Assembly (NCBI GenBank): GCA_045593945.1
Contig: JAZNXQ010000256.1
Span: 1 to 41,465, forward strand
DNA from: Lachnospiraceae bacterium
Lineage (GTDB): Bacteria > Bacillota > Clostridia > Lachnospirales > Lachnospiraceae
Reading direction: 5' to 3'
DNA: 41,465 nt
Positions 17,406 through 39,951 of the stretch are shown here, one piece after another (position 1 is the stretch's first letter; every line of letters begins with the position of its first letter). The notes under the pieces are model-generated. The model was given only the letters and a program-made list of their open reading frames with translations. It did not search any database and was not told where the DNA came from. The position numbers and the translations under genes are program-made.

Positions 17406-18578
17406 TTAGTGGTGGAATAAACGTACGCCTGTAAATGCCATTGCAATACCGTATTTGTTACATGTCTCGATTACATTGTCATCACGAACTGAACCGCCTG
17501 CCTCAGCAATATAAGCTACACCGCTTCTCTTAGCACGCTCGATATTATCGCCGAACGGGAAGAATGCGTCTGAACCGAGTGATACACCTGACATTGTTGC
17601 AAGCCAAGCCTTTTTCTCTTCTCTTGTAAGAATCTCTGGCTTCTCTGTGAAAATTGCTTCCCATGCGCCGTCTGCGAGTACGTCCTCGTAATCGTCTGAA
17701 ATATAAACGTCAATAGCATTGTCACGGTCGGGACGACGGATTTCCTCTTTGAAGGGAAGGTTAAGAACCTTCGGGTTCTGGCGGAGGAACCAGTTGTCTG
17801 CCTTATTGCCTGCGAGTCTTGTACAGTGGATACGTGACTGCTGACCTGCACCGATACCGATTGCCTGTCCGTCCTTAACGTAGCACACTGAGTTGGACTG
17901 TGTATATTTTAATGTAATCATAGAAATCATAAGGTCTATGATTGCATTCTCGGGAATATTCTTGTTCTCTGTTACGATGTTGTTAAACATCTCTTTTGTT
18001 ACCTGATAGTTGTTGCGGCCCTGTTCAAAAGTTACGCCGTAAACATCCTTTGTCTCGATTTCTTCGGGAACAAAGTTAGGATCCATCTTAATAACAACAT
18101 ATGTACCTTTTCTCTTGTTCTTGAGAATCTCAAGAGCTTTCTCTGAGTAAGAAGGTGCGATGATACCGTCTGATACCTCTCTTGCAAGGAAAGCAGCGGT
18201 CTGCTCGTCACATTCATCTGAAAGAGCAACAAAATCGCCGTATGAAGACATTCTGTCTGCACCGCGTGCGCGGATATATGCTGTAGCCATCGGTGAAAGC
18301 TCAATGCCTTCAACGAAGTATACTTTCTGTAAAGTCTCGTCAAGCGGAACTGCAACGGCAGCACCTGCAGGGCTTACATGCTTAAAAGATGCGGCTGCGG
18401 GAAGTCCTGTAGCTTCCTTAAGCTCTTTTACAAGTTGCCAGCTGTTAAATGCATCCAAAAGATTGATGTAGCCGGGACGGCCGTTCAAAATTTCGATAGG
18501 CAACTCGCCATTTTTCATGAAAATTCTTGCCGGTTTTTGATTGGGGTTACAACCATACTTTAATTCAAATTCTTTCAT
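17406..18578 (-). CDS. purH: AICAR formyltransferase (PurH C-terminal domain only, no MGS/IMPCH domain)
   Basis: MKEFELKYGCNPNQ, FKHVSPAGAAV, and a C-terminal FTGVRLFHH. The ATG at 18578 follows AGGAGA. The longer track ORF from 18629 has no RBS. Confidence 0.85.
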   Translation of the reverse strand: MKEFELKYGCNPNQKPARIFMKNGELPIEILNGRPGYINLLDAFNSWQLVKELKEATGLPAAASFKHVSPAGAAVAVPLDETLQKVYFVEGIELSPMATAYIRARGADRMSSYGDFVALSDECDEQTAAFLAREVSDGIIAPSYSEKALEILKNKRKGTYVVIKMDPNFVPEEIETKDVYGVTFEQGRNNYQVTKEMFNNIVTENKNIPENAIIDLMISMITLKYTQSNSVCYVKDGQAIGIGAGQQSRIHCTRLAGNKADNWFLRQNPKVLNLPFKEEIRRPDRDNAIDVYISDDYEDVLADGAWEAIFTEKPEILTREEKKAWLATMSGVSLGSDAFFPFGDNIERAKRSGVAYIAEAGGSVRDDNVIETCNKYGIAMAFTGVRLFHH

Positions 18579-18631
18579 ATGTTTTCTCCTTTTTGTGTTT
18601 TGTAGAACTCCCGTAAACTTGCTCGACATAC

Positions 18632-25836: not shown

Positions 25837-26520
25837 ATGATTGTTTTTGAAAATGTAGTAAAAACGTATGAGACCGGAACATCGGCGCTCAACGGAGTAA
25901 GTTTTAAGATTAATAATGGTGAGTTTGTTTTTATTGTGGGTAACAGCGGCTCGGGCAAATCTACAATAATTAAACTGCTTACCAAGGAACTTGATGCGAC
26001 AAGCGGTAAGATTGTTGTCAATAATAAGGTGCTTGGAAGACTCAGAAGAAAGAACATTTCCAAGTATAGAAGAGGAATAGGAATTGTTTTTCAGGATTTC
26101 AGGCTTCTTAAAGACAGGAATGTTTATGAGAATGTTGCATTTGCACAGAGAGTAATCGGCTCACCTATGAGAAAGCTTAAAAGGCAGGTTCCTGCCATGC
26201 TTTCGCTCGTAGGACTTGCTGAGAAGTATAAGTCGAACCCGGCACAATTATCAGGCGGAGAACAGCAGAGAGTTGCTCTTGCAAGAGCACTTGTGAATAA
26301 TCCGTCTATTTTGCTTGCGGACGAGCCTACAGGTAATCTTGATCCGAAGAATTCATGGGAGATTATGAAGCTTTTGGAGGAGATTAACAAAAGAGGTACT
26401 ACCGTAATTGTGGTTACTCATAATAAGGAAATCGTTGACGCCATGAAAAAGCGTGTAATTACGATGCACAAGGGTAATTTGATAGGCGATGAAAGAAGAG
26501 GCGGATACTATGAGGATTAG
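25837..26520 (+). CDS. ftsE: Cell-division ABC ATPase FtsE
   Basis: 227 aa with GNSGSGKST, LSGGEQQRVALARA and LLADEPTGNLD, immediately followed by ftsX. Confidence 0.92.
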   Translation: MIVFENVVKTYETGTSALNGVSFKINNGEFVFIVGNSGSGKSTIIKLLTKELDATSGKIVVNNKVLGRLRRKNISKYRRGIGIVFQDFRLLKDRNVYENVAFAQRVIGSPMRKLKRQVPAMLSLVGLAEKYKSNPAQLSGGEQQRVALARALVNNPSILLADEPTGNLDPKNSWEIMKLLEEINKRGTTVIVVTHNKEIVDAMKKRVITMHKGNLIGDERRGGYYED

Positions 26521-27418
26521 TACATTTTTTTATTGTTTCCGTCAGGGAATAAAGAACCTTTTTAAAAATAAGTTATTTACGCTTGCGTCCATCAGTACAA
26601 TGACTGCGTGTATTTTCCTTTTCGGAATGTTCTATGCGATAGTTGTTAATGTTCAGGCTATGCTTGACAATGCAGAGTCCAATGTCTGTATTACAGTGTT
26701 CTTTGACGAAGGGATGACAGAGGATGAGATAAAGGTACTTGGCGATAAGATAGGTAATTTGGAAGTAGTTGCAAAGATGGAATATACATCTCCTGAAGAA
26801 GCGTGGGAGAAATTTAAGGTAGAATATCTTAAGGGTCATGAGGAACTTGCTGATGCTTTTGCAGACGATAATCCTCTTGCGGACTCAGCTTCTTATACTA
26901 TATATCTTAAAGATGTATCCATGCAGAAGGATTTGGTGAATTATCTTCGTACAACGGAGGGCATTCGCCAGGTAAATGAGTCGGAAGTGCTTGCGGAAAG
27001 TTTTTCCGGTTTTGGAAAGCTTGTGGCGTATGTTTCGGCAGGTATAATTATTATCTTGTTTGCAGTATCGATTTTCCTTATCAGTAATACGGTTACTGTC
27101 GGAATTACGGTCCGCAAGGAAGAGATTTATATTATGAAAATTATAGGAGCGACGGACTTTTTTGTACGTTTCCCTTTTATTGTGGAAGGAATTATAATAG
27201 GACTTCTTGGTGCGGCGATTCCGCTCGGAATTATTTACTATGTTTATAATTATGTGGTGGAGTATGTCGTGGAGACATTTGCGATTTTGTCGGGGATTAT
27301 GGATTTTGTAAGTATTGATGTTATTTATAAATCATTACTTCCTGTAGGTCTGATTCTCGGTATAGGTATCGGTTTCCTCGGAAGTAGTGTTACAGTCAGA
27401 AAGCATATTAAGGTTTAA
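26510..27418 (+). CDS. ftsX: Cell-division permease-like protein FtsX
   Basis: MRISTFFYCFRQGIKNLFKNKLFTLASI start, an extracellular loop domain and three C-terminal TM helices. The ATG at 26510 overlaps the ftsE stop by 11 nt. The track start at 26489 is less likely. Confidence 0.88.
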   Translation: MRISTFFYCFRQGIKNLFKNKLFTLASISTMTACIFLFGMFYAIVVNVQAMLDNAESNVCITVFFDEGMTEDEIKVLGDKIGNLEVVAKMEYTSPEEAWEKFKVEYLKGHEELADAFADDNPLADSASYTIYLKDVSMQKDLVNYLRTTEGIRQVNESEVLAESFSGFGKLVAYVSAGIIIILFAVSIFLISNTVTVGITVRKEEIYIMKIIGATDFFVRFPFIVEGIIIGLLGAAIPLGIIYYVYNYVVEYVVETFAILSGIMDFVSIDVIYKSLLPVGLILGIGIGFLGSSVTVRKHIKV

Positions 27419-27429
27419 GGAGGTAGTCT

Positions 27430-28623
27430 ATGTCCGGTAGAATTAAAAGATGTGTCGCAAGACTTCTTATGGCTATGATGTGTGTTTCTTGCGCACTTCC
27501 TGTATATGCAGCAACAACCAAGGATAAAATTAATAACAAAAAGGACCAGATTGCCAATCTTGAATCGGAGCGTAAGGCACTTGAAGCCAAGATTGCTCAG
27601 CTTAAAAAGGACCAGAAGAATATAATGGCATATATAGAGCTTTTGGATGTTGAACTTAACGGTATATCCGATAAGCTTATCGGGCTTGAAGATGAGAAGG
27701 TAGTTCTCGAAGGAGATATTGCCACGACGGAAGAGAATCTTGCAAGCGCAGAGGATACAGAGGCTAATCAGTATGCATCCATGAAGCTTCGTATTAAGTA
27801 TATGTATGAAAATGGTAACGAGAATTTCCTTGACTTGCTTTTAAGTTCTGATAATATGGAAGATTTCCTGAATAAAGCGGAATATGTTGAGAAGATTGCG
27901 GAGTATGACCGTAATATGCTTGATTTGTATGCCAAGACGAGAGAAGACATTGCAGCTTATAAGGAACAGCTTCTTGATGAAAAGACAGAGCTGGAGCTTC
28001 TTATTGAGCTTACGGAAGCAGAGTATTCCAATATGGAGTTGCTGATTGCTTCGAAAGAAGCGGAACTGAATAAGTACGATGCCAATATTGCTGATAATGA
28101 AGCACTACAGGAAGAACTTGATGCCGAGTGGGACGATATGAACGATGACCTCAAGGCTTTAGAGGAGCAACTCAAAAAAGAGGAAGAAGAAGCTAAGAGG
28201 AAAAAGGTAATATATGACGGAGGGCAGTTTATATGGCCGCTCAAGAATAATTTTAAGGTTACCTCAAAATACGGATACAGAACACATCCCGTAACTGGAA
28301 AGAAATATTCTTTCCATAATGGAATGGATATAGGAGCTTCTTCAGGTACGCCTATTTTGTCTGCATATAAAGGTGTAGTGGCTACAGTTGCTTACACCTC
28401 GCTTGCAGGTAATTATATTATGATTAATCACGGTAGCGGTTTGTATACGGTATATATGCATTGTTCAAAGATTATTGCGAAGCAGGGACAGACTGTTAAA
28501 CAGGGGGATACTATCGCACTTGTTGGTTCTACAGGCAGGTCAACGGCACCGCATTTGCATTTTAGTGTAAGACTTAACGGAGAATATGTAAATCCCGGTC
28601 CGTATATAGGTTATAATAAGTAA
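27430..28623 (+). CDS. Coiled-coil M23 (LytM) peptidoglycan endopeptidase, EnvC/PcsB-like FtsEX partner candidate
   Basis: Signal peptide or anchor, about 230 aa of heptad-rich coiled coil, then an M23 domain with intact HNGMD and HLHF metal ligands. Confidence 0.85.
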   Translation: MSGRIKRCVARLLMAMMCVSCALPVYAATTKDKINNKKDQIANLESERKALEAKIAQLKKDQKNIMAYIELLDVELNGISDKLIGLEDEKVVLEGDIATTEENLASAEDTEANQYASMKLRIKYMYENGNENFLDLLLSSDNMEDFLNKAEYVEKIAEYDRNMLDLYAKTREDIAAYKEQLLDEKTELELLIELTEAEYSNMELLIASKEAELNKYDANIADNEALQEELDAEWDDMNDDLKALEEQLKKEEEEAKRKKVIYDGGQFIWPLKNNFKVTSKYGYRTHPVTGKKYSFHNGMDIGASSGTPILSAYKGVVATVAYTSLAGNYIMINHGSGLYTVYMHCSKIIAKQGQTVKQGDTIALVGSTGRSTAPHLHFSVRLNGEYVNPGPYIGYNK

Positions 28624-28637
28624 TAAAGGAGACAGCA

Positions 28638-29918
28638 ATGGAAGAGAAAAAGGGTTTTGGCAAAGGCCTTTTGATAGGCATTGTCGGAGGAGCCTTAGGT
28701 ATGTTTATTATGGCTGTGGCAGTTATAATAATAAGCATGAATAGTATTGGTAAGAGTATAGGGGACGGAACTCTTTTTATAGAAGGTGCAGAAGGCCCGA
28801 ATGGTGGCGTGATGTATGAGCTTACCGAGACTGAGGATTTTGTAATTTCCAAAATCGGGTATATCATGGCTATGATAGACAGCGAGTTCTATTTTGAATA
28901 TGATAAGGAAAAGGCGTTGGACGGAATATATTACGGAGTACTTGATTCTTTGGGAGATGTCTATTCAACGTATTACAGTAAAGAAGAGTTTGATGACTTG
29001 ATGGAAACAACGCAGGGTGTATATTACGGAATCGGCGTCAAAGTTTCACAGAGTTATGCTACAGGAATTATTACCGTGGCTAAGGTATTTGAAGGAGCAC
29101 CGGCATTTGAGGCGGGAATGCTTCCGGGCGATATTCTTGTGGCAGTTAATGATGAAGATATAAGCGGTATGGATTTGAATATTGTTGTCACGATGATTAA
29201 GAGTGAAGAGGAAGGTTCTACTGTTAAAATTACCGTTCAAAGAGATGGTAAACTTGTTGATATGGATGTAGAGCGCCGTAAGGTAGAATACCCGGCTGTT
29301 GAGTATGAGATGCTTGACAATAATATAGGTTATTTACAACTTGTGGAGTTTGATACGGTATCCGTGAAACAGTTTGAAGCAGCCCTTAAGGATTTGAACT
29401 CACAGGGAATGGAAGGAATAGTATTCGACCTTCGTGATAACCCGGGAGGAACTCTTGATTCGGTTGTGGGAATACTTGATATGATTTTGCCGGAGTGTAC
29501 GATTATTTACACAGAAGACAAGGATGGTAAAGTTGGTGAAAAACATGTGTCTGATGCAGAAACTATTTTAAATGTGCCGGCGGTAGTTCTTGTTAACGGC
29601 AACAGTGCAAGTGCGGCAGAGGTTTTTGCAGGGGATGTACAGGATATGGGTGTTGCAACTCTTGTTGGAACTACGACATTTGGTAAAGGTATTGTTCAGC
29701 AGGTTTATCCCATTGGAGACGGAACAGCGGTTAAGCTTACTCAGTCTAGTTACTTTACAAGTGCGGGACGTAATATTCATGGGGACGGAATCGAACCTGA
29801 TGTCTATGTTGAACTTGATGAGGAGCTTCTTGGTAAGGTTGTTATCGAAAAGGAAGAAGATAACCAGCTTCAGAAGGCTTTGGAAGTTCTTGGAGAGAAG
29901 ATTGAAGCAGCACAGTAG
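28638..29918 (+). CDS. S41 C-terminal processing protease (Ctp) with PDZ domain
   Basis: N-terminal TM anchor, PDZ (GAPAFEAGMLPGDILVAVND), the S41 core RDNPGG, and NGNSASAAEVFAG...TFGKG (Ser/Lys dyad context). Confidence 0.88.
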   Translation: MEEKKGFGKGLLIGIVGGALGMFIMAVAVIIISMNSIGKSIGDGTLFIEGAEGPNGGVMYELTETEDFVISKIGYIMAMIDSEFYFEYDKEKALDGIYYGVLDSLGDVYSTYYSKEEFDDLMETTQGVYYGIGVKVSQSYATGIITVAKVFEGAPAFEAGMLPGDILVAVNDEDISGMDLNIVVTMIKSEEEGSTVKITVQRDGKLVDMDVERRKVEYPAVEYEMLDNNIGYLQLVEFDTVSVKQFEAALKDLNSQGMEGIVFDLRDNPGGTLDSVVGILDMILPECTIIYTEDKDGKVGEKHVSDAETILNVPAVVLVNGNSASAAEVFAGDVQDMGVATLVGTTTFGKGIVQQVYPIGDGTAVKLTQSSYFTSAGRNIHGDGIEPDVYVELDEELLGKVVIEKEEDNQLQKALEVLGEKIEAAQ

Positions 29919-29950
29919 TATAATTACACCGATATACGGAGGATTATGGT

Positions 29951-31345
29951 GTGAAAAAGTTAAGATTCTATTTTGCATTATTTGCAGGAAAAATAATATA
30001 TCTTACAGAGAAGGCGTTGCACAAAAATGCAACGTTTTTTCCGGGTAGTATGGCAGTTAAGCTATGTCCCGATATTTTAAAATATTTTGATAAGCCGAAG
30101 CAGATAATCTGCATAACAGGTACTAACGGCAAGACAACCGTTACCAATATGCTTATAAGCTTTTACGAGAAAAAGGGTTACAGTATCGTGCATAATAGTT
30201 ATGGCTCCAATGTAGCGGGCGGGATTGTAACTTCTTTTTTGAAAGATTCTACTTTTACAGGCAAGTGCAAAAAAGATATAGCGATTCTTGAAGTGGATGA
30301 GAAGAGTAGCAGACTTGTGTTCCCTTATATGGAGCCGGATTGGCTCATTTGTACCAATCTTTTCAGAGATTCCATTAAGCGTAATGCTCATACGGAGTAT
30401 ATCGCGGGGATTTTGGACAAATACATTCCCAAGAAGACAAAACTTGTTGTTAATGCTGATGATTTAATCAGCAGCAGACTTGCAGAGGGTAATGAGCGCT
30501 TGTATTTCGGAATAGAGAAGCAGGAGAGCGAGTCGGGTAAGAACGACAGTCTCATAAGAGATATCAGCATTTGCCCGGAATGTGATACAAAGCTTGAGTT
30601 CGATTTTGTCAGATATCATCATATCGGACAGGCACATTGTCCTAAGTGCGGTTTTGCATCCGCTAAAAGCGATTATACAGTCACAGAAATCAAATACGAT
30701 GAAAATGTTGTTGCCATATCAGAAAAGGGCAGAATCGAGCGATATGAGCTTCTGTCGGGCAATATAGTTAATATATATAACCAGGTTGCCTGTGTGGCAT
30801 TACTTAAAGAGCTTGGTTTCAGCTCGGATGATATTAAGACATATCTTACCAAGGATAGTATTGTAGCATCGCGTTTTTCTGTCGTAGAGGCAGGATGTGT
30901 AAGAATTATGACACAGCTTTCTAAGGGAAAGAATTCCATTGCCTGTTCAAGGGCGCTTGATTTTATTAATCATTTCAATTCAAAGGCCAAGGCAGTTTTT
31001 CTTATGGTTGATGATTTGTATGAGGAAAAAGAAGGTTCCGAGAATACCTGTTGGTTGTATGATGCAGATTTCGAGTATCTTGCGCAGGATGAGGTTAAAC
31101 GTGTAGTTGTTGCAGGTGCGAGACATCTTGACCATAAGCTGAGACTTTTGATGGCGGGTGTACCGGAGGACAGAATCGTATGTGTGCTTGAGGAAAAGGA
31201 CGCGGTTGCGCCGCTTGTAGAAGCAGCAAAAGAACTCGGCGTAGATTCTATGTTTATATTACATGAAGTATTCGGATACCAAAGAGCTAATCAGGTAAGA
31301 GAATGCGTTAAGGAAAGGTTGGTGTCAGAGAATGCTTCGAATTGA
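29951..31345 (+). CDS. murT: Mur-ligase-family MurT (lipid II isoglutaminyl synthase ligase subunit homolog)
   Basis: P-loop ITGTNGKTT, NLFRD, a four-Cys ribbon CPECDTKLEFDFVRYHHIGQAHCPKCGF and a C-terminal WLYDADF (DUF1727-like). GTG start. Overlaps the next gene by 14 nt. Confidence 0.8.
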   Translation: MKKLRFYFALFAGKIIYLTEKALHKNATFFPGSMAVKLCPDILKYFDKPKQIICITGTNGKTTVTNMLISFYEKKGYSIVHNSYGSNVAGGIVTSFLKDSTFTGKCKKDIAILEVDEKSSRLVFPYMEPDWLICTNLFRDSIKRNAHTEYIAGILDKYIPKKTKLVVNADDLISSRLAEGNERLYFGIEKQESESGKNDSLIRDISICPECDTKLEFDFVRYHHIGQAHCPKCGFASAKSDYTVTEIKYDENVVAISEKGRIERYELLSGNIVNIYNQVACVALLKELGFSSDDIKTYLTKDSIVASRFSVVEAGCVRIMTQLSKGKNSIACSRALDFINHFNSKAKAVFLMVDDLYEEKEGSENTCWLYDADFEYLAQDEVKRVVVAGARHLDHKLRLLMAGVPEDRIVCVLEEKDAVAPLVEAAKELGVDSMFILHEVFGYQRANQVRECVKERLVSENASN

Positions 31346-32039
31346 AGTACTTTTTCCGGAGGTTTGTAACTTATACGGAGATATGGGCAATATCCAGTAT
31401 TTAAAATACTGTTATCCTGATGCCGAGTTTATTGAGACGGCACTTACCGAGACACCGGCATTTGCTACGTCCAAAGTGGATATGATATATCTTGGTTCAA
31501 TGACTGAAAGGCTTCAGGAAAAGGTTGTTGCCAAACTTAGCGAATATAAGGCCGAGTTTTCGGCATGTATAGATGACGGAACGGTTATATTGTTTACCGG
31601 CAATGCATATGAGCTTATGGGGGCGCATATAGAGGATGACGGCCGTAAAATACCTTGTCTTGGCTTCTTTGATTATTATGCCAAGCGAGATATGATGAAT
31701 CGTCATTTTAGCATAATCCTTGCTGAATTTGAGGGTATGGAGCTCGTTGGTTTTAAGGATCAGTTTACCATGTCCTATAATAATTCTGATGACACAGCTT
31801 TTATGAAAATTGTAAAAGGAGAGGGTTGGCATGACGGTGCCGCATTTGAAGGTGTGCGCAAAAATAACTTTTTTGGAACATACCTCCTCGGACCGTTTCT
31901 TATAATGAATCCGGGCTTTACCAAATATTTGATGAAGTTATTGGGAGACAATGAGCCGCAACTTGCTTTTGATGAAGCTATTACCGCGGCATATGAGAAA
32001 AGATTATATGAGTTTAAGACAAAATCAGTAATAAAATAA
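31332..32039 (+). CDS. gatD: GatD-like CobB/CobQ-type amidotransferase partner of MurT (apparently lacking catalytic Cys and His)
   Basis: N-terminal FPEVCNLYGDMGNIQYL and C-terminal GTYLLGPFLIMNP align to the GatD family. The nucleophile position reads TGNAYELMG rather than xCGGYQxxG. Confidence 0.75.
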   Translation: MLRIEVLFPEVCNLYGDMGNIQYLKYCYPDAEFIETALTETPAFATSKVDMIYLGSMTERLQEKVVAKLSEYKAEFSACIDDGTVILFTGNAYELMGAHIEDDGRKIPCLGFFDYYAKRDMMNRHFSIILAEFEGMELVGFKDQFTMSYNNSDDTAFMKIVKGEGWHDGAAFEGVRKNNFFGTYLLGPFLIMNPGFTKYLMKLLGDNEPQLAFDEAITAAYEKRLYEFKTKSVIK

Positions 32040-32083: not shown

Positions 32084-32461
32084 TTAATCTAAATATTCGC
32101 TGGAAGCTGACTGCGGAGAACGCATCGTACATGTTCCGTTGAGTATTGCGCCTTCATCTGCTATGAGGTTACCGCAAATAATACTTCCCTGAATGTTGCC
32201 GCTATGCGCAAGTTGGATGGTCTGCATGATGTCAAGGTTGCCTTCTACGATTCCGCAAACATATGCAAATTCAGCAGAAATATTACCTTTAACATAACCT
32301 GTTCCACCTATAACAATGCTTGAAGAACATTCAATGTCTCCAACAAATTTACCTGTAATTTTGATGGGTTCGGTGCTTTTTAAAAGTGCTACGGATAATT
32401 CGGTAGCATCACCGATAATTGTTCCGGGTTTGTCAAAATTGGGTTTCTTGATTTTTTTCAT
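32084..32461 (-). CDS. Bactofilin (polymer-forming cytoskeletal protein, DUF583)
   Basis: 125 aa of repetitive beta-helix pattern (ITGKFVGDIECSSSIVIGGTGYVKGNISAEFAYVCGIVEGNLDIMQTIQLAHSGNIQGSIICGNLIADEGAILNG). Confidence 0.85.
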   Translation of the reverse strand: MKKIKKPNFDKPGTIIGDATELSVALLKSTEPIKITGKFVGDIECSSSIVIGGTGYVKGNISAEFAYVCGIVEGNLDIMQTIQLAHSGNIQGSIICGNLIADEGAILNGTCTMRSPQSASSEYLD

Positions 32462-32478
32462 GTAATAATCCTCGTAAA

Positions 32479-33540
32479 TTAATCTAAATAATCAGCGGGG
32501 TCAACTTTCTCACCATTAACTAAGACTTCGTAGTGAAGATGTACGGCAGTACTTCTTCCTGTTCGTCCTGCAAGAGCAATGCAATCACCCTTGGAAACGG
32601 TCTCACCTTTTTTGAATAAAAGCTTCGTGCAATGTGCATATCGTGTAGAATATCCATAACCATGGTCGATTACGATGGTATAACCATAACCGGTTACGTA
32701 ACCGGAAGAAATAACTGTTCCGGAGGCTGTAGCATACAATTCCTGCTTGTACTTGGCAGCAAAATCAATTCCGTAGTGGAATTCTTTGCCTTTGCCGGTA
32801 ATGGGATTGGTTCTGTAGCCGTAAGGACAGGTTATTCTTGAGTCCTTAATAGGCCAGCCACTCGGTACAGATTCTATGTAAGGTACGTAAACATCAGTCA
32901 TCTCGGCTAAGGTGTTCATCGCCTGATAGTTCTCATCTAAAACAGTCTCTAATGAATTGAGCAATGATAAAATATCAGCATACTGTTTATCAAAGTCATC
33001 CAATGCCGACAAATAAGTGCTCGAGCTGCTTGATGAAGATAAAGGTGAAGATGAATTACCTACATCATAAGGGGTCTTACTTGCAGTAGTGTCTGAAGAG
33101 TAAATCTCGTCGGGAGCTTCGTTAAGCTTCTCGTAAATTGAATCACGTATTGCTTCAAGATTCTCAATCTTACTGAGTATCTCCTGAGTCTGACCCTCAA
33201 GTATATTAAGTTGTGCTTCTTTTTCTTCAATTGAACCGAGTAACTCATTAATGATAATATTCTTCTCAGACAATACGGCTTCAACAGAGGATTTCTCGGC
33301 TTCAACAAGCTTCTTCTGGTCCTGTACATATGAGATGTTCTGTTCCAAAGTATTAACGCGGTTCGTAAAGTTAGTATACACTGAACCAATGTAAAATCCG
33401 GCCACCAAAAGAAGTACCATAAATAATGGGAATATTACTTTGGGAATACGGAAATTTCTGCCTGAAGAAGAAGTTCTCGTAGTAACCATAAGTGATATGT
33501 AGCGGTCGGACTTAACGGAGTGTATCTTTGGCTTACGCAT
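32479..33540 (-). CDS. Membrane-anchored coiled-coil M23 (LytM) endopeptidase
   Basis: TM helix (VIFPLFMVLLLVAGFYIG), coiled coil, a Ser-rich linker, and an M23 domain with FHYGID and HLHYEV. The ATG at 33540 is preferred because a predicted promoter -10 (33606-33611) places the start site at or below the TTG at 33600. Confidence 0.8.
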   Translation of the reverse strand: MRKPKIHSVKSDRYISLMVTTRTSSSGRNFRIPKVIFPLFMVLLLVAGFYIGSVYTNFTNRVNTLEQNISYVQDQKKLVEAEKSSVEAVLSEKNIIINELLGSIEEKEAQLNILEGQTQEILSKIENLEAIRDSIYEKLNEAPDEIYSSDTTASKTPYDVGNSSSPLSSSSSSSTYLSALDDFDKQYADILSLLNSLETVLDENYQAMNTLAEMTDVYVPYIESVPSGWPIKDSRITCPYGYRTNPITGKGKEFHYGIDFAAKYKQELYATASGTVISSGYVTGYGYTIVIDHGYGYSTRYAHCTKLLFKKGETVSKGDCIALAGRTGRSTAVHLHYEVLVNGEKVDPADYLD

Positions 33541-33605
33541 TGAAACACACGCCTTTCCGTTTTCTAGTATTAATTTCCTATATCGTGATATAAGAGGCAA
33601 ACTCT

Positions 33606-33717: not shown

Positions 33718-35496
33718 TTATCCGTGTATTAAATCATTGATTTCATTCGTGCCTAAAAGCCTGCATTGCTTATTGCTTATGCTGTAAACTCTTGTACAAA
33801 TATTAAGGACTGTGGGCCTGTGGGTTGTAACGATGGTAGTTCTCGGATATTGGTCATCCATAATATTTTTGAGAACCTGTCGTTCGGTCATAATATCAAG
33901 TGCCGAGGTGGCCTCATCAAGAAGAAGAATTGGTGAGCGCCTGAGTAAAGCTCTTGCGATGGAAAGACGTTGTGCCTGACCTTCGGAAAAACCGCCGCCA
34001 CGTTCTTTGATTTCGGTATTGATGCCATCAGGAAGTTTTTCAACAAAATTCCAAGCACAGGCAATCTTTAATGCCTCTATGATTTCTTCATCAGAAGCAT
34101 CTTCTTTTACGTTACGCATGTTGTCAGCAATTGTTCCGGAAAACATAGTGTTGCCTTGCGGAACATATGCAAAAAGCTGACGGGTGGATGCTGTCAGATC
34201 CATGCAGGGTTTGCCGTTTTCAGGTGTACCGTCTCCTGCACATATGAAACCTGCTCCTTCTTTTGCGCGGATAATTGATAGAATAAGTCGTAACATGGTC
34301 GTTTTGCCTTCGCCTGACGGACCGACAAGCGCAATCACTTCATGCGGGTGGGCATCGAAGGTTGCATTTTCAAAAACCTCTGTACCTGTTGCGTATGTAT
34401 ATGCGGCATTGCGGATGCTAAGGCCGATACCGACATTTTTATTGTTCTCAAAGAATTGCGCTACGTCGTCTTTTTGCGAGTAGTCTTCTTTGGGGAGAGA
34501 GAGAATACCCATTAGACGTTTGGCGGCATTTGTGAGCATTATTGTATTGGGAATAAAACTAATTAAATTATCTACGGATGAACTGAGTGTAGCTGAGAGT
34601 GCCAAAAACATTGTCATGGCACCGTATGTAATATCACCGTTCCAAACCTTATAAATTCCCCAACCGTAAGAGGAATATGTTACAAGTAAAGAAACTAGAG
34701 TAAGCACAAAACTGTTTAAAATTGAAGCTCGTTGATATTTCATACGAACATCGCTGTATTGCTTTTGTAAAATACGAAGTCTGTTTGAATAAAGTGGAAT
34801 CATATCAAAAGCTTTTACGGTATGTATATTAGAGAATGTTTCCTGGTTAAAGGTCGACAATTTTGTCCCGAGGGTCATGCTTTGCATATTATCTTTACGC
34901 ATTTTCTTAAGAGAAGCTTTGGATGCATAGATGCTTAAGGGAATGCTTATAAGAGCAAATATAGCAAAGGAAGCATCGTTGTACAAAACCATAATGAGCG
35001 CTGAAAAAAAGCGAAACAGATAAATTATAAGATTGGGAAGCATATTAAGTATTCCTGATGAAATATAACTTGCATCTCCGTTCCATCTGACAAGCAAATC
35101 GCCTGAATGAAATCTTGATAAAGATTCCCAGTCGGTTATAAGTATCTCGTCAAAAATCTGAGCCTTAATGTTATTATCGATTTTTATACTTATTCTGGTG
35201 GAAATATAATTAGAAATCTGGGTTATCAAAGTGCTGCCCAGTGTCATTCCAATCATTGCACAAAAAGTTGAAATAAGTTTGCCGGTATTATGCCCTGTTA
35301 TAATATCTACAAGGTCTCTTGAGACTAGGCTTCCGAGCAAGGTTATTAGCGTGCTTGAAAGTCCTAGGAGTGTATAAATACCGATAAAAAGATAGTATTT
35401 CTTTGCGTATTTATAAATCCATACAAGTTGAGAATATATTTCCTTGAGGCGTCCTTGCTTAATTCGAGTGATATAATGTTTGAGTTTTGATAACAT
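33718..35496 (-). CDS. ABC exporter, fused permease + ATPase (type I exporter; no C39 peptidase domain)
   Basis: 592 aa. Six predicted TM helices are followed by an NBD with GPSGEGKTT, FSEGQAQRLSIARA and ILLLDEATSALD. RBS GGAGGA. Confidence 0.88.
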   Translation of the reverse strand: MLSKLKHYITRIKQGRLKEIYSQLVWIYKYAKKYYLFIGIYTLLGLSSTLITLLGSLVSRDLVDIITGHNTGKLISTFCAMIGMTLGSTLITQISNYISTRISIKIDNNIKAQIFDEILITDWESLSRFHSGDLLVRWNGDASYISSGILNMLPNLIIYLFRFFSALIMVLYNDASFAIFALISIPLSIYASKASLKKMRKDNMQSMTLGTKLSTFNQETFSNIHTVKAFDMIPLYSNRLRILQKQYSDVRMKYQRASILNSFVLTLVSLLVTYSSYGWGIYKVWNGDITYGAMTMFLALSATLSSSVDNLISFIPNTIMLTNAAKRLMGILSLPKEDYSQKDDVAQFFENNKNVGIGLSIRNAAYTYATGTEVFENATFDAHPHEVIALVGPSGEGKTTMLRLILSIIRAKEGAGFICAGDGTPENGKPCMDLTASTRQLFAYVPQGNTMFSGTIADNMRNVKEDASDEEIIEALKIACAWNFVEKLPDGINTEIKERGGGFSEGQAQRLSIARALLRRSPILLLDEATSALDIMTERQVLKNIMDDQYPRTTIVTTHRPTVLNICTRVYSISNKQCRLLGTNEINDLIHG

Positions 35497-35513: not shown

Positions 35514-35543
35514 AAAAATGCACCACTACCATAGTGGTGCATT
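35514..35543 (-). terminator. Intra-operon (attenuating) terminator between the 165-aa gene and the ABC exporter
   Basis: The minus strand reads aatgcaccactatggtagtggtgcattttt: a 10-11-bp stem, 4-nt loop and T5. The exporter RBS follows immediately. Confidence 0.65.
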
Positions 35544-35569: not shown

Positions 35570-36067
35570 TTAGCTACAAAAATAACATTCAAGTTCGCAA
35601 TAATATTTGGTTGCATTATCTGCACCGATTGCACCATGCAATGGATTGCCGGCTGCATCATATGTAGGTGTGGAAGTAACTATCTCAAAATTAAAACCAA
35701 TATTATCATTGGCATTAAAGTGATTATTACGGGTTAAAGAAAACAATCGGGAATTATAATTAGTAATAATACAACCGCTTGCATTTTTTACTTCTACAAT
35801 ATCGAAATTTGTTTTAATAAATATAACAAGTGATTCGCCACTATGATTGCCATTGTGTTCGGCAAAGACATGACATACGGAGTGTCCGCCGTTGTTATGT
35901 CCGGTCCAAGTAAATTTCCAATTTACCCAACATTTCTGATCTTCATAAGCGGGAGGTGTCTCCGGCTGACCGGGATTCGGTGAAGAACCACTTCCTGCAT
36001 AAATTGCTTCTTTTGTATCATTAATATCAAGATCTAATATTTCTGCATAAAATTTATTTTCGCTCAT
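35570..36067 (-). CDS. Hypothetical 165-aa Cys/His-rich protein with leader-peptide-like N-terminus (candidate substrate/precursor)
   Basis: The ATG at 36067 lies 8 nt after AGGAGAG; the track GTG at 36076 abuts that RBS. The N-terminus MSENKFYAEILDLDINDTKEAIYAGSG is acidic and is not a Sec signal. A Pro/Gly linker follows, then a His-rich beta-type domain and a C-terminal CELECYFCS. Confidence 0.6.
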   Translation of the reverse strand: MSENKFYAEILDLDINDTKEAIYAGSGSSPNPGQPETPPAYEDQKCWVNWKFTWTGHNNGGHSVCHVFAEHNGNHSGESLVIFIKTNFDIVEVKNASGCIITNYNSRLFSLTRNNHFNANDNIGFNFEIVTSTPTYDAAGNPLHGAIGADNATKYYCELECYFCS

Positions 36068-36099: not shown

Positions 36100-36128
36100 A
36101 TTATAAGATTTTGCCTGTTACCTGTCAA
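36100..36128 (-). promoter_or_regulatory. Consensus sigma-A promoter dedicated to the 165-aa gene
   Basis: Minus strand TTGACA (36123-36128), exactly 17 nt, TATAAT (36100-36105), in the 88-nt gap after the upstream gene. Confidence 0.65.
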
Positions 36129-36155: not shown

Positions 36156-37316
36156 TTAGCTTTTGTCTATGTATGAATCAATTACATTCCGTATATAAAA
36201 TACTGCGGTTTCGGTTGGAATTGCGTTAAAACGGCATACAAGTATATCGGGGTAAACTAAGTTTATAATATTAAAAATAGTTTCCTGCATATCATATGTC
36301 CATGAAGGAGAAATATTCCTGTGTAAAAGATAGAGAAGTTTCTGCTCATCTGTGAGAGATACAAATTCATTATCTTTTCCTTGCTGTAAAAGAATAATTC
36401 CGCCCAAAGGATAAGAAAATGTAGTGGATATTCCGGAAGTTCCGCACCATGGAATTCCATGGATCACAGGTGAGTTATCATTTATATCGATTAAGTTTAC
36501 GTCACCATTTAAGATAGGAATATTCAAAACAGAGTTCCATAGGTCAGTGTGGGTTGACTTGCCGACACCGGATGCTGCCGAAAACAGCCATGCATTATCT
36601 CTGTAAAGTATTGAAGCAGAATGTATGGCAAACATATTGTGAAGCCCGGCAAAGTATAGGAAAAGAATTTGCATAACTGAGAAGCTTTCCTGTTTACACT
36701 CTTCAGTCTGAGAATGTTTGCAAAGAATGGTGGCTTCTTTGCCGTCATGGCTTAAGTGTGCTTCCGTAATATATTTGAAAGCTGGAAATAATAAGCAATA
36801 TCCGGAGGTATTCTCAAGAATACAAAGCTCTTTGTTTTGTAAAATTAATTTGCCATTCTTGTTATATGGCTGCGTTTTGGTTTGTATGGAAATGCTTTGT
36901 GTAAGTTCAGATTCAAAAGAATCATCTGTTGTCTCAAATGCAAATAGTTTGTCGGAAAAACATTCTCTGTCGCCATATAATTTAATAAACAAACCAGCTA
37001 TCTTGAGGACTGCGCAAGGCGAGTCGTGCATGTCATAATCTTCGGGTAATAAAAGTTTTTGGTGGCGGAGTGCCGCAACAAATTTATGAATTGAATCTGC
37101 AATGTTGTCATAATCTTCTTTGGGACAATTATGTTCAGTTATATAAAGCGTTACCAATTCCTCTTCTGAAGAAACTGTTTCTAGTGCGTTCCACAAGAAC
37201 AGGCTGGTGTCATTCAAACGCAAATCATGCCCAAAGTCTGCTAATGCCTGCCCAAATGCAATCAGATAAGGCGTTCCGGATATAAATTTAAGTTGATAAT
37301 GGGGATTACGCTTCAT
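36156..37316 (-). CDS. PqqD-like (RRE) domain fused to an HPr-kinase-C-like P-loop domain
   Basis: Residues about 1-92 fit the PqqD pattern (LRLNDTSLFLWNALETVSSEEELVTLYITEH...IHKFVAALRHQKLLL). Residues about 225-330 carry HSASILYRDNAWLFSAASGVGKSTHTDLW...NGDVNLID, resembling HprK-C / RiPP-associated HprK-related kinases. The start is ATG 37316 or GTG 37325. Confidence 0.65.
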   Translation of the reverse strand: MKRNPHYQLKFISGTPYLIAFGQALADFGHDLRLNDTSLFLWNALETVSSEEELVTLYITEHNCPKEDYDNIADSIHKFVAALRHQKLLLPEDYDMHDSPCAVLKIAGLFIKLYGDRECFSDKLFAFETTDDSFESELTQSISIQTKTQPYNKNGKLILQNKELCILENTSGYCLLFPAFKYITEAHLSHDGKEATILCKHSQTEECKQESFSVMQILFLYFAGLHNMFAIHSASILYRDNAWLFSAASGVGKSTHTDLWNSVLNIPILNGDVNLIDINDNSPVIHGIPWCGTSGISTTFSYPLGGIILLQQGKDNEFVSLTDEQKLLYLLHRNISPSWTYDMQETIFNIINLVYPDILVCRFNAIPTETAVFYIRNVIDSYIDKS

Positions 37317-37361
37317 TGGTATCACCGCTTTCTGCTTTATTGAATGACAATTCTTAATTAT

Positions 37362-37390
37362 ATTATACTATTTTTTTATAATTAAGGCAA
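37362..37390 (-). promoter_or_regulatory. Putative promoter of the PqqD-kinase cassette
   Basis: Minus strand TTGCCT (37385-37390), 17-nt spacer, TATAAT (37362-37367). Confidence 0.5.
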
Positions 37391-37524: not shown

Positions 37525-39873
37525 ATGAAAATTACAGGGACTATACCTTACGAATATAAGAACGCACCGATTCCGGGTGGGGGCTATGTGACGGGACTCA
37601 TTTATCATAGGAAGCAGCCGGGAATTCTTTATGCAAGAACCGATATAGGCGGTACCTACAGATTTAATAATGAAGAGCAGAAATGGGAGAGTCTGATTAA
37701 CCATGTAACGATGGAAGATTTGTCGGAAACGTATCCTATTGCATTGGCACTTGATGATAAGTGTCCTGAGAGACTTTACATAGCGAGTGGTATTACTGAG
37801 AACGGTTATGGCGTGTTAAGTATATCCGAAGATTTTGGAGAAACTTTTACATATAAGAGGATTCCTGCAACTGTTCACGGGAATATGAGCGGTCGCGGAA
37901 CGGGCTACAGACTTGTGGTTGATAATAACGACAGTAATACACTATATTTCGCAAGCCAGAAGAATGGTCTTTTAAAAAGTGCAGACCGTGGAGACACATG
38001 GACAAAACTTGATATAGACGAGGATTATATGACTTTTGTATGGGTGTCGGAAGATTCTAAGACGATTGTTGCGGGAACGGCAGGTTATATAACAAGGATT
38101 GATGACGGTTTGAGAGGGCATAGCCTGTATGTTTCCTATGACGGCGGTGAGAGTTTTGAAAAGCTTATGCAGCCTGAAAATGTAATTATTGAAGACAGTA
38201 AAATGAACGGCCTTGTGGCTTCGCGCTATGACTATGACGGAAAATATCTGTACGTGACAATGCAGTCCACGGGACGTTGGAATTACATTGTTGATATGGG
38301 TTACAGTTGTGATACGGGAGATACTCTTGGCGGCAAGGTTTTGCGTTATAGATTTAAGGACGGTATAATCACGGGATATGACGATATTACTCCGGATGGA
38401 GAAGGAAGACTTACCACAAAGTATCTTAATTACGGTTTCGGAGGAGTCTGCTCCTGTCCTGCTAAACCGGGACTTCTTGTGTGTTCTACACTGTGTAAAG
38501 AAAAAGAATCGCCGGAGTGTATATATATTTCTGAGGATTACGGTAACAGTTGGCGAATCAGTTTAAGAGGTTTGGATGAAGGAGACATATACTTCAGAAC
38601 CTCTTACATGCAGCCAAAGTATAATGCAGGAGAGAGTCTTCTTCACTGGCTTAGTGATGTTAAGATAGATCCATTTAATCCAAACAAGCTTTGGTTTAAT
38701 TCAGGAACGGGAGTTTTTACGACTGATGAGCTTCTCTCGGAGCATCCGAAGTACCACGATTATTGTGACGGTATAGAGGAAACAGTGCATCTTAATGTTT
38801 ATGCTCCGCTTGCAGGAGAGGTAAAGCTTGTGGACATTGTTGGTGACTTGGGAGGTTTTGCGTTTAGGGATTTGACAAAACCTTGCGACAATTCATTTGA
38901 CGATAAGGACGGTAACCGTTACATAACCTGTATCAATGCGGATATGTCGGATGCAGACAGTAACCTTGCGATTGTTACGGCAAGAGGTAACTGGAAAGGG
39001 AAGACAAAGGGCGGTCTGATTAGAACCAGGGATAATTTTAAGACCTTTGAAAGAATTCCAATGCCTTTTGGAATAAATGATAAAATTGATACAGCACTTA
39101 AATTCATTGAGCACCCCAATGTTAATCCGGGCTGGGTTGCCATGTCACCTGACGGGCAGAATATTGTCTGGTCGATTGCGGATATGATAAGACTTCCGGC
39201 GGATATGGTTATTGTAAGCGGGGATGCAGGTAAGAGCTTTAAACAGGCTGAGATTTTTAACATTTGCGAAAGTAAGGTTACGACCGGATTTTTTAAAGTA
39301 TTTTCAGACCGGATTGATAATGATGTCTTTTATGGTTTTGACGGAGAAGGACATATATATGTAAGCTTGGACGGCGGCTTTTCGTATTATGAGAAGCAGG
39401 TGTGCGCAAGGAACCGTGCAGGTGTGTCAATCGATTTTCCGAAGAGTGATTTCGGGTATATTGATACGGCCAATAAAACAGAAGTCAGAGGCGTATCGGG
39501 TGTAAAAGGCTGCTTTTATATGGCACTCGGTAGGGGCGGTTTGTGGAAGCTTGAGTTTAATAAGGAACAGGATAAGTTCGATGCGATAAGGCTTTCAGAG
39601 GATAAGGAAGAGTGTTATTGCATGGGAATAGGTCTCGGCGCAAAAGACGGTAATTATATAAGTGCTACAAAAGCAATTTATTTTTGCGGAATTGTTGACG
39701 GTAAGTATGGTTTTTACAGAACTTTTGACGAGGGTGAGACCTGCGAAAGAATCAACACTGATAAGCAGATGTTCGGTCAGATTATAAGTATTGATGCTGA
39801 TAAGAGAGCGTTCGGACGGTTTTTTCTGGCGTCCGGCTCAAGAGGTGTGTTATTCGGGTGTGAGAGTGAGTGA
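37525..39873 (+). CDS. GH74-family xyloglucanase / oligoxyloglucan hydrolase-like protein (no signal peptide)
   Basis: N-terminal YEYKNAPIPGGGYVTGLIYHRKQPGILYARTDIGGTYRF is GH74-typical. Multiple Asp-box/BNR repeats are present (SEDFGETF, SADRGDTW, SYDGGESF, SEDYGNSW, SGDAGKSF, SLDGGFSY). Confidence 0.8.
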   Translation: MKITGTIPYEYKNAPIPGGGYVTGLIYHRKQPGILYARTDIGGTYRFNNEEQKWESLINHVTMEDLSETYPIALALDDKCPERLYIASGITENGYGVLSISEDFGETFTYKRIPATVHGNMSGRGTGYRLVVDNNDSNTLYFASQKNGLLKSADRGDTWTKLDIDEDYMTFVWVSEDSKTIVAGTAGYITRIDDGLRGHSLYVSYDGGESFEKLMQPENVIIEDSKMNGLVASRYDYDGKYLYVTMQSTGRWNYIVDMGYSCDTGDTLGGKVLRYRFKDGIITGYDDITPDGEGRLTTKYLNYGFGGVCSCPAKPGLLVCSTLCKEKESPECIYISEDYGNSWRISLRGLDEGDIYFRTSYMQPKYNAGESLLHWLSDVKIDPFNPNKLWFNSGTGVFTTDELLSEHPKYHDYCDGIEETVHLNVYAPLAGEVKLVDIVGDLGGFAFRDLTKPCDNSFDDKDGNRYITCINADMSDADSNLAIVTARGNWKGKTKGGLIRTRDNFKTFERIPMPFGINDKIDTALKFIEHPNVNPGWVAMSPDGQNIVWSIADMIRLPADMVIVSGDAGKSFKQAEIFNICESKVTTGFFKVFSDRIDNDVFYGFDGEGHIYVSLDGGFSYYEKQVCARNRAGVSIDFPKSDFGYIDTANKTEVRGVSGVKGCFYMALGRGGLWKLEFNKEQDKFDAIRLSEDKEECYCMGIGLGAKDGNYISATKAIYFCGIVDGKYGFYRTFDEGETCERINTDKQMFGQIISIDADKRAFGRFFLASGSRGVLFGCESE

Positions 39874-39937
39874 ATTTGCGAAGCAAATTTGCTCGGAAAC
39901 GCAGTTTCCCATAGAGTGAGTGAATTTGCGAAGCAAA
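39864..39937 (+). repeat. 25-nt direct repeat (two copies, 49-nt period) spanning the GH74 stop codon
   Basis: agagtgagtgaatttgcgaagcaaa occurs at 39864-39888 and again at 39913-39937. Each copy contains the small palindrome tttgc-gaa-gcaaa. Confidence 0.85.
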
Positions 39938-39951
39938 GTTAGGAGGCAATT

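Follow-up and report, generated by a model that had tools for sequence, protein, structure and literature searches.

The locus considered here raises the question of whether a single bacterial protein joins a leader-binding domain to a kinase-like enzyme and, if so, on which protein it would act. The locus lies in a stretch of 41,465 nucleotides (the window: contig JAZNXQ010000256.1 of the Lachnospiraceae bacterium assembly GCA_045593945.1), and the gene in question encodes a protein of 386 amino acids. An earlier note, made from the DNA letters alone, had described this protein as a fusion of a RiPP (peptide made by the ribosome and modified post-translationally) recognition element (RRE) to an HPr-kinase-like P-loop domain. 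The single polypeptide is borne out at the level of domain, fold, and family: the protein consists of an RRE (residues 1–92) and a complete two-lobed unit related to ScmC and HprK (residues ~100–386). The reading favored here, to which a probability of roughly 0.6 is given, is that a lasso/LPP-type RRE and an HprK-related, ScmC-like phosphotransferase act together in the leader-guided phosphorylation of a co-encoded protein that is then exported, and that the system represents a fused Lachnospiraceae version of the linear polyphosphorylated peptide (LPP) pathway of the Bacilli (Popov et al., Nat Commun, May 2026; PMC13381572).

The fusion is not an artefact since hundreds of homologues carry both domains at full length. 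The architecture is widespread: homologue searches gave 90%-identity clusters numbering at least 943, nearly all of them full length with ~380–395 amino acids, and 680 representatives at 50% identity with E-values below 1e-30. Relatives of the fusion are present in at least 362 species-representative genomes, and the best 80 of these 362 belong nearly all to gut and rumen Lachnospiraceae (Acetatifactor, Lachnoclostridium, Eubacterium, Blautia, and others). The only names given to the relatives in NCBI and UniRef are "PqqD family protein" and "PqqD family peptide modification chaperone." Lachnospiraceae-like cassettes were also found in metagenome-assembled genomes labelled Muribaculum or Gastranaerophilales (L028, L038, and L043), all from one study (NALB_7961), and these labels probably reflect binning errors and not a true taxonomic spread. 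The open reading frame (ORF) of the window opens with an ATG, which is preferred over an in-frame GTG at 37325 (three additional amino acids) because the homologues begin with MKRNP.

An AlphaFold2 model of the fusion, built on 64 sequences, displays a mean predicted local distance difference test score (pLDDT) of 91.9 with no segment below 50. The region of residues ~95–225, previously taken for a linker without recognisable motifs, turned out to be a structured N-lobe: residues ~100–226 are modelled with pLDDT values of 84–97 as a beta-rich lobe (strands within residues 102–199) and a long helix (205–224). Among the relatives, positions 125–245 of the 292 in the ScmC model align with residues 227–342, and positions 86–149 of the 280 in the HprK_rel_A model align with residues 217–281. 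Based on these alignments, the ~85–125 positions that precede the P-loop in the two models map to residues ~95–225.

The assignment of the N-terminal ~90 residues to the PqqD-like domains is marginal for the window protein alone and solid for the family. Residues 32–89 match Pfam PqqD (PF05402) with an E-value of 1e-4 and 23.0 bits (gathering score 23.4), and a search of the single sequence against the PDB returned only noise. All 64 aligned relatives match Pfam PqqD (best E-value 1.6e-12, several at 37–44 bits), and the family profile finds the solved RREs LppB (9x8z, E = 0.002) and TbiB1 (5v1u, E = 0.009) as well as PbaB1 (9x90) and TfuB1 (6jx3). The nearest solved relative of this half is LppB, the RRE of the LPP pathway. 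In the model, two strands (residues 7–12 and 15–20) are followed by four helices (24–28, 36–44, 51–61, and 66–85). According to the main text on the LPP pathway, N33 and D70 of LppB bind the YxxP motif of the leader (PMC13381572). The equivalent of N33 is N35 in the window protein and is conserved in 63 out of 64 relatives; the position equivalent to D70 is occupied by Asp in most relatives, and Asp occurs together with a YxxP leader in 51 loci.

The P-loop half is predicted to adopt the HprK/phosphoenolpyruvate carboxykinase (PEPCK) fold. The top PDB matches of the model in a Foldseek search were HprK/P structures (1kkl, 1kkm, 1jb1, 1ko7, 1knx, and 3tqf) and ATP-dependent PEPCK, with E-values of ~1e-5, and the ORF coordinates place the ASGVGKST P-loop exactly where it had been noted earlier (36552–36575). 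The family alignment contains a set of invariant residues (H232, S233, G250, G252, K253, N270-G271-D272, G287xPWCGxS294, and R333), every one of which is kept in the window protein. The invariant H232 is located 21 residues before K253 and the invariant D272 19 residues after it. The PDB sequences of HprK/P carry a His 21 residues before the P-loop Lys and a DD pair 17–18 residues after it, an equivalence to H232 and D272 that is drawn by spacing only. The invariant NGDxN and GxPWCGxS motifs and R333 argue for a working rather than a degenerate active site. With respect to sequence, the closest families of the kinase-like unit are ScmC and HprK-related kinase A, by weak matches: among the 64 relatives, NCBIfam HprK_rel_A matches 51 and ScmC 34. 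For the N-terminal half, ScmD matches 25 and PqqD_rel_X 6, in addition to lasso PqqD chaperones. The window protein alone gave no NCBIfam match at E ≤ 1. A precomputed Pfam label (PF27840, ScmC) is attached to many relatives, including P0002 with 83% identity to the window protein, and one is marked "ScmC (weak)." No canonical hprK gene was found in 87 related loci.

These 87 loci were used for a census of gene neighborhoods. An MsbA-like ATP-binding cassette (ABC) exporter adjoins the fusion gene in 81 out of 87 loci, a small Ser-protease gene with weak matches to TIGR02228 (archaeal-type signal peptidase I) and to SipW is located upstream in divergent orientation in 66, and 46 loci carry an NTP_transf_5 gene. 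Leader-bearing precursors (82 genes of 66–174 amino acids in at least 64 loci, up to four per locus) share the leader consensus MKxYEKPVVLxNEELAEGVYAASG, which precedes several unrelated core families that mostly consist of 100–140-amino-acid predicted folded domains. Two to four precursors with near-identical leaders are found in L042, L058, L083, L027, L030, L041, and other loci. The cores belong to at least four unrelated families (DCWT..VQDWNGSHHVFE; DCYTV..HQTPE.GR..Y.IQ; KCDS.YM.GVWQAPDYS; GN.YKVNTY.V), and a search of seven precursors of differing core type against Pfam and NCBIfam gave nothing meaningful.

This gene set reproduces that of the LPP clusters of the Bacilli (LppA/K/B/S/D/N). 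As described in the main text of PMC13381572, LppS of these clusters is a SipW-like peptidase, LppB a discrete RRE, LppK an HprK-like kinase, LppN an NTP-transferase, and LppD an MsbA-like exporter, and the precursors comprise 35–200 amino acids with a YxxPxVLxHQxIxFETxxS leader. The same source reports that LppK transfers up to four phosphates onto Ser3 of the LppA core, which was shown for P. alginolyticus only, and that LppS cuts after T-1 with LppB being required. The pathway had been described for about 80 Bacilli genomes. The relatives of the window protein share the RRE, the HprK-like kinase, the signal peptidase, NTP_transf_5, the MsbA-like exporter, and precursors in which the leader is conserved and the cores vary. 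The YxxPxVL leader is shared as well, its Tyr being followed by a Ser at a distance of 19 residues in the Lachnospiraceae and of 18 in LppA, and the operon of the window likewise pairs the fusion gene with a 592-amino-acid MsbA-like exporter. In contrast to the LPP clusters, the RRE and the kinase-like unit form one polypeptide instead of discrete proteins, the hosts are Lachnospiraceae (Clostridia) instead of Bacilli, and the cores are mostly protein-sized (100–140 amino acids, predicted folded).

Other known systems share parts of this organization. The lasso peptide kinases (PadeK and ThcoK of paeninodin-type clusters, PsmK of pseudomycoidin) also belong to the HprK superfamily and are part of RiPP clusters, where they phosphorylate and sometimes polyphosphorylate a Ser of the linear precursor. 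They often occur together with an ABC exporter, a nucleotidyltransferase, and a B1 protein that is a discrete PqqD-type RRE. They differ in being separate proteins with a C-terminal Ser as the acceptor, whereas the acceptor proposed here is located at the leader–core junction, and in having a lasso cyclase and a B2 protease as neighbors, both of which are absent among the window ORFs scanned. ScmC/ScmD of the SynChlorMet system (TIGR04249/TIGR04248) and HprK_rel_A with PqqD_rel_X (TIGR04352/TIGR04353) are partners encoded next to each other, in place of which a fused protein is found here. The radical-SAM/SPASM or GRASP partners of these systems are absent from the window; a scan of the window ORFs found no radical-SAM, SPASM, or ATP-grasp genes. 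HprK/P and ATP-dependent PEPCK share the P-loop fold, the Walker A motif, and a comparable His/Asp spacing with the window protein. HprK/P differs by its N-terminal domain, and the RRE-fused unit described here is clustered with leader-bearing precursors and shows no connection with either HPr or carbon catabolite control.

Leader-guided phosphotransfer, which the earlier note had predicted, is the best-supported reading: the neighborhoods across the wider family match the experimentally characterised LPP pathway, and the precursors have a leader of the same YxxPxVL...S type; the chemistry itself is inferred. In the proposed mechanism, the RRE would capture the disordered N-terminal leader of a 165-amino-acid protein encoded next to the fusion, and the bound leader would place its EGIYAGSG-type segment at a fixed distance in the kinase-like active site. 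The kinase-like unit would then move one or more phosphates from ATP onto an invariant Ser (Ser26), and the co-transcribed MsbA-like transporter would export the modified protein. In most relatives, the SipW-like peptidase would subsequently cut the leader and the NTP-transferase may decorate the phosphate.

The proposed substrate is encoded directly downstream of the fusion gene, as the earlier note had implied, and has just 33 homologues. It is laid out as a leader, a Pro-rich spacer of variable length (to residue ~40), and an all-beta core (residues ~45–165). AlphaFold2 assigns pLDDT values below 50 to residues 1–35, which are thus predicted to be disordered, and of ~90 to the core. The leader of the precursor in the window keeps EAIYAGSG where the family has the EGIYAGSG-type motif. 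Ser26, which would be the phospho-acceptor by analogy to LppA, is located 19–21 residues past the aromatic position in the motif for RRE binding, compared with 18 residues in LppA. The core contains four Cys residues that are conserved, along with several His and Trp residues and the motif CWxNWxCTWTGHNNGGHSVC, and its predicted fold weakly resembles CBM2-type cellulose- or chitin-binding modules (E ~1e-3, template modelling score 0.4–0.6), a hint of a CBM2-like fold. An Omp_AT match of the protein (E = 0.086) was dismissed as noise. The precursor gene is preceded by a consensus promoter of its own and by an AGGAG ribosome-binding site in front of the ATG at 36067 and is followed by a terminator-like hairpin (table 1). 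These elements suggest a much stronger transcription of the precursor gene than of the adjacent genes, a layout that is typical of strongly expressed structural genes in peptide operons.

Several observations weigh against this reading, and a first group concerns the kinase-like half. None of the 64 relatives matches Pfam Hpr_kinase_C (PF07475) at E ≤ 1, and an hhalign comparison of the family with four PDB HprK/P catalytic domains (sequences recovered from PDB alignments) aligned 18 P-loop columns only, with a probability of 18.6%. A membership in HprK/P by sequence was rejected on this basis, and the earlier description of this half as HprK-like stands for the PEPCK-like fold with its Walker A motif and does not extend, in sequence, beyond the P-loop. 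The best ScmC and HprK_rel_A scores among the relatives are ~20 bits compared with cut-offs of 125 (ScmC) and 200 (HprK_rel_A), and the searchable literature yielded no demonstrated activity for the ScmC/SynChlorMet and HprK-related kinase families. Furthermore, the unit is likened to LppK on the strength of the gene set, and to the lasso kinases on that of the superfamily and the occurrence in RiPP clusters. Architecture, fold, family size, synteny, and the conserved leader motif are observed; that phosphate from ATP is transferred, which residue accepts it, in what order the steps proceed, and what becomes of the leader are proposed by analogy to LppK and LppB.

The extreme divergence from HprK/P would suit a different nucleotide chemistry on the precursor, such as adenylylation or another nucleotidylation, pyrophosphate (PPi)-dependent transfer, or phosphorolysis, in place of a simple Ser phosphorylation. 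In HprK/P, the HprK/PEPCK fold supports ATP- and PPi-dependent phosphotransfer as well as phosphorolysis; in addition, the invariant Cys291 of the GxPWCGTS motif has no counterpart in the PDB HprK/P sequences compared. However, the characterised RiPP-associated members of the fold, the lasso kinases and LppK, are all O-phosphotransferases that act on Ser, and a separate NTP_transf_5 protein in the relatives covers nucleotidyl or glycosyl transfer. A chemistry other than phosphorylation is considered quite unlikely.

A second group of observations concerns leader binding and the substrate in the window. The YxxP motif is degenerate in the window as well as in the relatives closest to it, where FYAE takes its place (FxxE, with Phe for Tyr and Glu for Pro), and the RRE of the window carries Ser75 at the position of the Tyr-binding Asp (D70 of LppB). 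Across the loci, the RRE Asp and the leader Tyr show a suggestive co-variation, which is not clean, as Thr occurs together with YxxP in five loci. The binding between RRE and leader may be weakened or altered in this group, and a folded beta-sandwich core of ~120 amino acids is unusual as a RiPP substrate. The altered residues on both sides, together with the absence of the peptidase (SpI) and NTP-transferase genes described below, might indicate that the cassette of the window is a decaying remnant in which the fusion no longer acts on the adjacent protein. This is judged very unlikely, given that the three genes are intact and syntenic throughout a monophyletic clade with 41–83% protein identity, that all family-invariant residues are kept in the window protein, that conservation extends to Ser26 and the remainder of the leader, and that a perfect promoter and a ribosome-binding site still precede the precursor gene.

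That clade, which comprises the window and nine related loci (L001–L003 and L007–L012), is monophyletic on a neighbor-joining tree of the fusion proteins. The fusions of the nine loci display 41–56% identity to the window protein, and metagenomic relatives reach 83%. The operon is co-directional in the clade, with the fusion gene followed by the gene for the ~165-amino-acid protein and the exporter gene, and the consensus of the leader in the family of this ~165-amino-acid protein is MKxF[I/E][A/T]PxL...EG[V/I]YAGSG. The third group of unfavorable observations comes from what surrounds these three genes: the 41-kb window contains neither an archaeal-type signal peptidase nor NTP_transf_5, and both are likewise absent from the ±9 kb around the cassettes in the clade. 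The steps of leader removal and phosphate decoration would thus be missing, and the end product of the clade differs from the LPPs because the leader peptidase and the NTP-transferase are missing there. The peptidase was most likely lost in the clade, since the sister locus L053 retains the peptidase alongside a precursor similar to the 165-amino-acid protein.

A cassette that consists only of fusion, substrate, and exporter, without a peptidase or a further tailoring enzyme, would also be expected of a chaperone or secretion adaptor. In this alternative, the leader is bound by the RRE, and the binding or hydrolysis of ATP by the P-loop unit would serve only to pass the unfolded 165-amino-acid protein to the exporter, with no covalent modification. 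The name "peptide modification chaperone" given to relatives and the lack of a demonstrated ScmC-type activity in the searchable literature fit this explanation. It is nevertheless considered unlikely: the invariant triad of His, Walker A Lys, and Asp together with NGDxN, GxPWCGTS, and R333 resembles a catalytic site and not a nucleotide switch, the fold is a phosphotransferase fold, Ser kinase activity is proven for the equivalent component in the homologous LPP gene set, and an invariant Ser is kept at a fixed spacing from the RRE-binding motif. Under the preferred reading of leader-guided phosphorylation, a further and improbable suggestion for the three-gene clade is that the leader is never removed and that the phospho-tail of the CBM2-like protein licenses export by the MsbA-like transporter, which would amount to a phosphorylation-gated secretion independent of a signal peptide. 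If this were true, hundreds of gut Lachnospiraceae species would tag and export folded proteins of 100–140 amino acids by RiPP-type leader recognition.

RREs have been catalogued in fusions with cyclodehydratases, radical-SAM enzymes, and lasso B proteins, among other partners. No description of an RRE–kinase fusion was found in the searchable main-text literature, and RRE-Finder makes no mention of kinases. In the literature searched, "HprK" and "RRE" in the RiPP sense occurred together only in the LPP paper, and the main text of that paper mentions neither Lachnospiraceae nor Clostridia nor a natural RRE–kinase fusion (PMC13381572). The statement in the earlier note that the RiPP clusters known have RREs and HprK-like kinases as separate proteins is in line with this literature, in which the LPP paper refers to a "discrete RRE." The fusion is apparently undescribed, and the system as a whole belongs to a type already known, in which RiPP pathways, specifically LPP-like clusters, include HprK-type phosphorylation. 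The new elements are the RRE–enzyme fusion itself, the hundreds of gut and rumen Lachnospiraceae hosts, the protein-sized substrates, and the three-gene clade. Given the precedents of adjacent genes, the fusion would hardly astonish a RiPP specialist. It provides direct "Rosetta-stone" evidence that PqqD-like and HprK-related proteins, which are encoded next to each other in the ScmC/ScmD, HprK_rel_A, lasso, and LPP systems, act as a unit. It also extends the LPP pathway to at least 362 species-level genomes, mostly of gut and rumen Lachnospiraceae, in which several unrelated and largely protein-sized cores share one leader. The subtype of enzyme, substrate, and exporter is minimal and easily reconstituted and could be used to probe how an RRE positions its substrate and what purpose the phosphorylation serves.

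Table 1. Positions of the cassette and of further features within the 41,465-nucleotide window.
Feature	Position	Strand	Basis or context
RRE–kinase-like fusion gene, 386 aa (stop codon 36156–36158)	36156..37316	minus	ORF list, homologues, AlphaFold2
RRE (PqqD-like winged helix), residues 1–92	37041..37316	minus	Pfam PqqD, profile hits, AlphaFold2 secondary structure
Beta-rich N-lobe of the kinase-like unit, residues ~100–226	36639..37019	minus	AlphaFold2, ScmC/HprK_rel_A alignments
P-loop (HprK/PEPCK-fold) lobe, residues 227–386	36159..36638	minus	Foldseek, invariant columns, hhalign
Walker A codons, ASGVGKST, residues 248–255	36552..36575	minus	Direct translation
Promoter-like site 5' of the fusion gene, TTGCCT-17-TATAAT, 10/12	37362..37390	minus	Consensus match only
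Sigma-70 consensus TTGACA-17-TATAAT, 12/12, before the precursor gene, in the fusion–precursor intergenic region	36100..36128	minus	Consensus scan
Precursor-like protein gene, 165 aa	35570..36067	minus	Conserved directly 3' of the fusion gene in the clade; AlphaFold2
Leader region MSENKFYAEILDLDINDTKEAIYAGSG, residues 1–27	35987..36067	minus	Precursor alignment; leader census over 64 loci
Ser26 codon, predicted phospho-acceptor	35990..35992	minus	Invariant in 34/34 sequences
Predicted terminator-like hairpin, 12-bp stem and T run, between precursor and exporter genes	35517..35543	minus	Consensus scan, sequence
MsbA-like ABC exporter, 592 aa, without C39 peptidase domain	33718..35496	minus	Pfam ABC_membrane and ABC_tran, NCBIfam MsbA-related
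Bactofilin (125 aa) directly 3' of coiled-coil M23 peptidase (373 aa), straight after the exporter gene	32084–33600	minus	
FtsE, FtsX, PcsB-like coiled-coil M23 peptidase, S41/PDZ protease, MurT, GatD-like amidotransferase	25837–32039	plus	Cell-division/cell-wall block
ZMP/ZTP riboswitch, Rfam RF01750, 55.5 bits	18656–18734	minus	Upstream of AICARFT/IMPCHase (purH-like) gene 17406–18629
Ribosomal protein L10 leader, RF00557	2437–2576	plus	Within nusG-rplKAJL-rpoBC region; ordinary
16-nt direct repeat GAATTTGCGAAGCAAA, two copies	39871–39950	plus	Short intergenic region before gene from ~39951 off the window end

The genes around the cassette are chromosomal housekeeping genes (nusG-rplKAJL-rpoBC, ftsEX, murT/gatD, bactofilin, and M23 peptidase), and an Rfam search revealed no RNA elements within the cassette or close to it. 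The M23 peptidase and the bactofilin were considered as members of the cassette and rejected, as the M23 gene adjoins the cassette in only 2 out of 87 loci; the pair probably represents a separate cell-shape or cell-wall module. Glycoside-hydrolase-like proteins are encoded near the precursor gene (12559–14676, 37525–39873, and from 39951 to the end of the window). The ZMP/ZTP riboswitch in front of the purH-like gene is an expected and known arrangement, and the GAATTTGCGAAGCAAA repeat may act as an operator.

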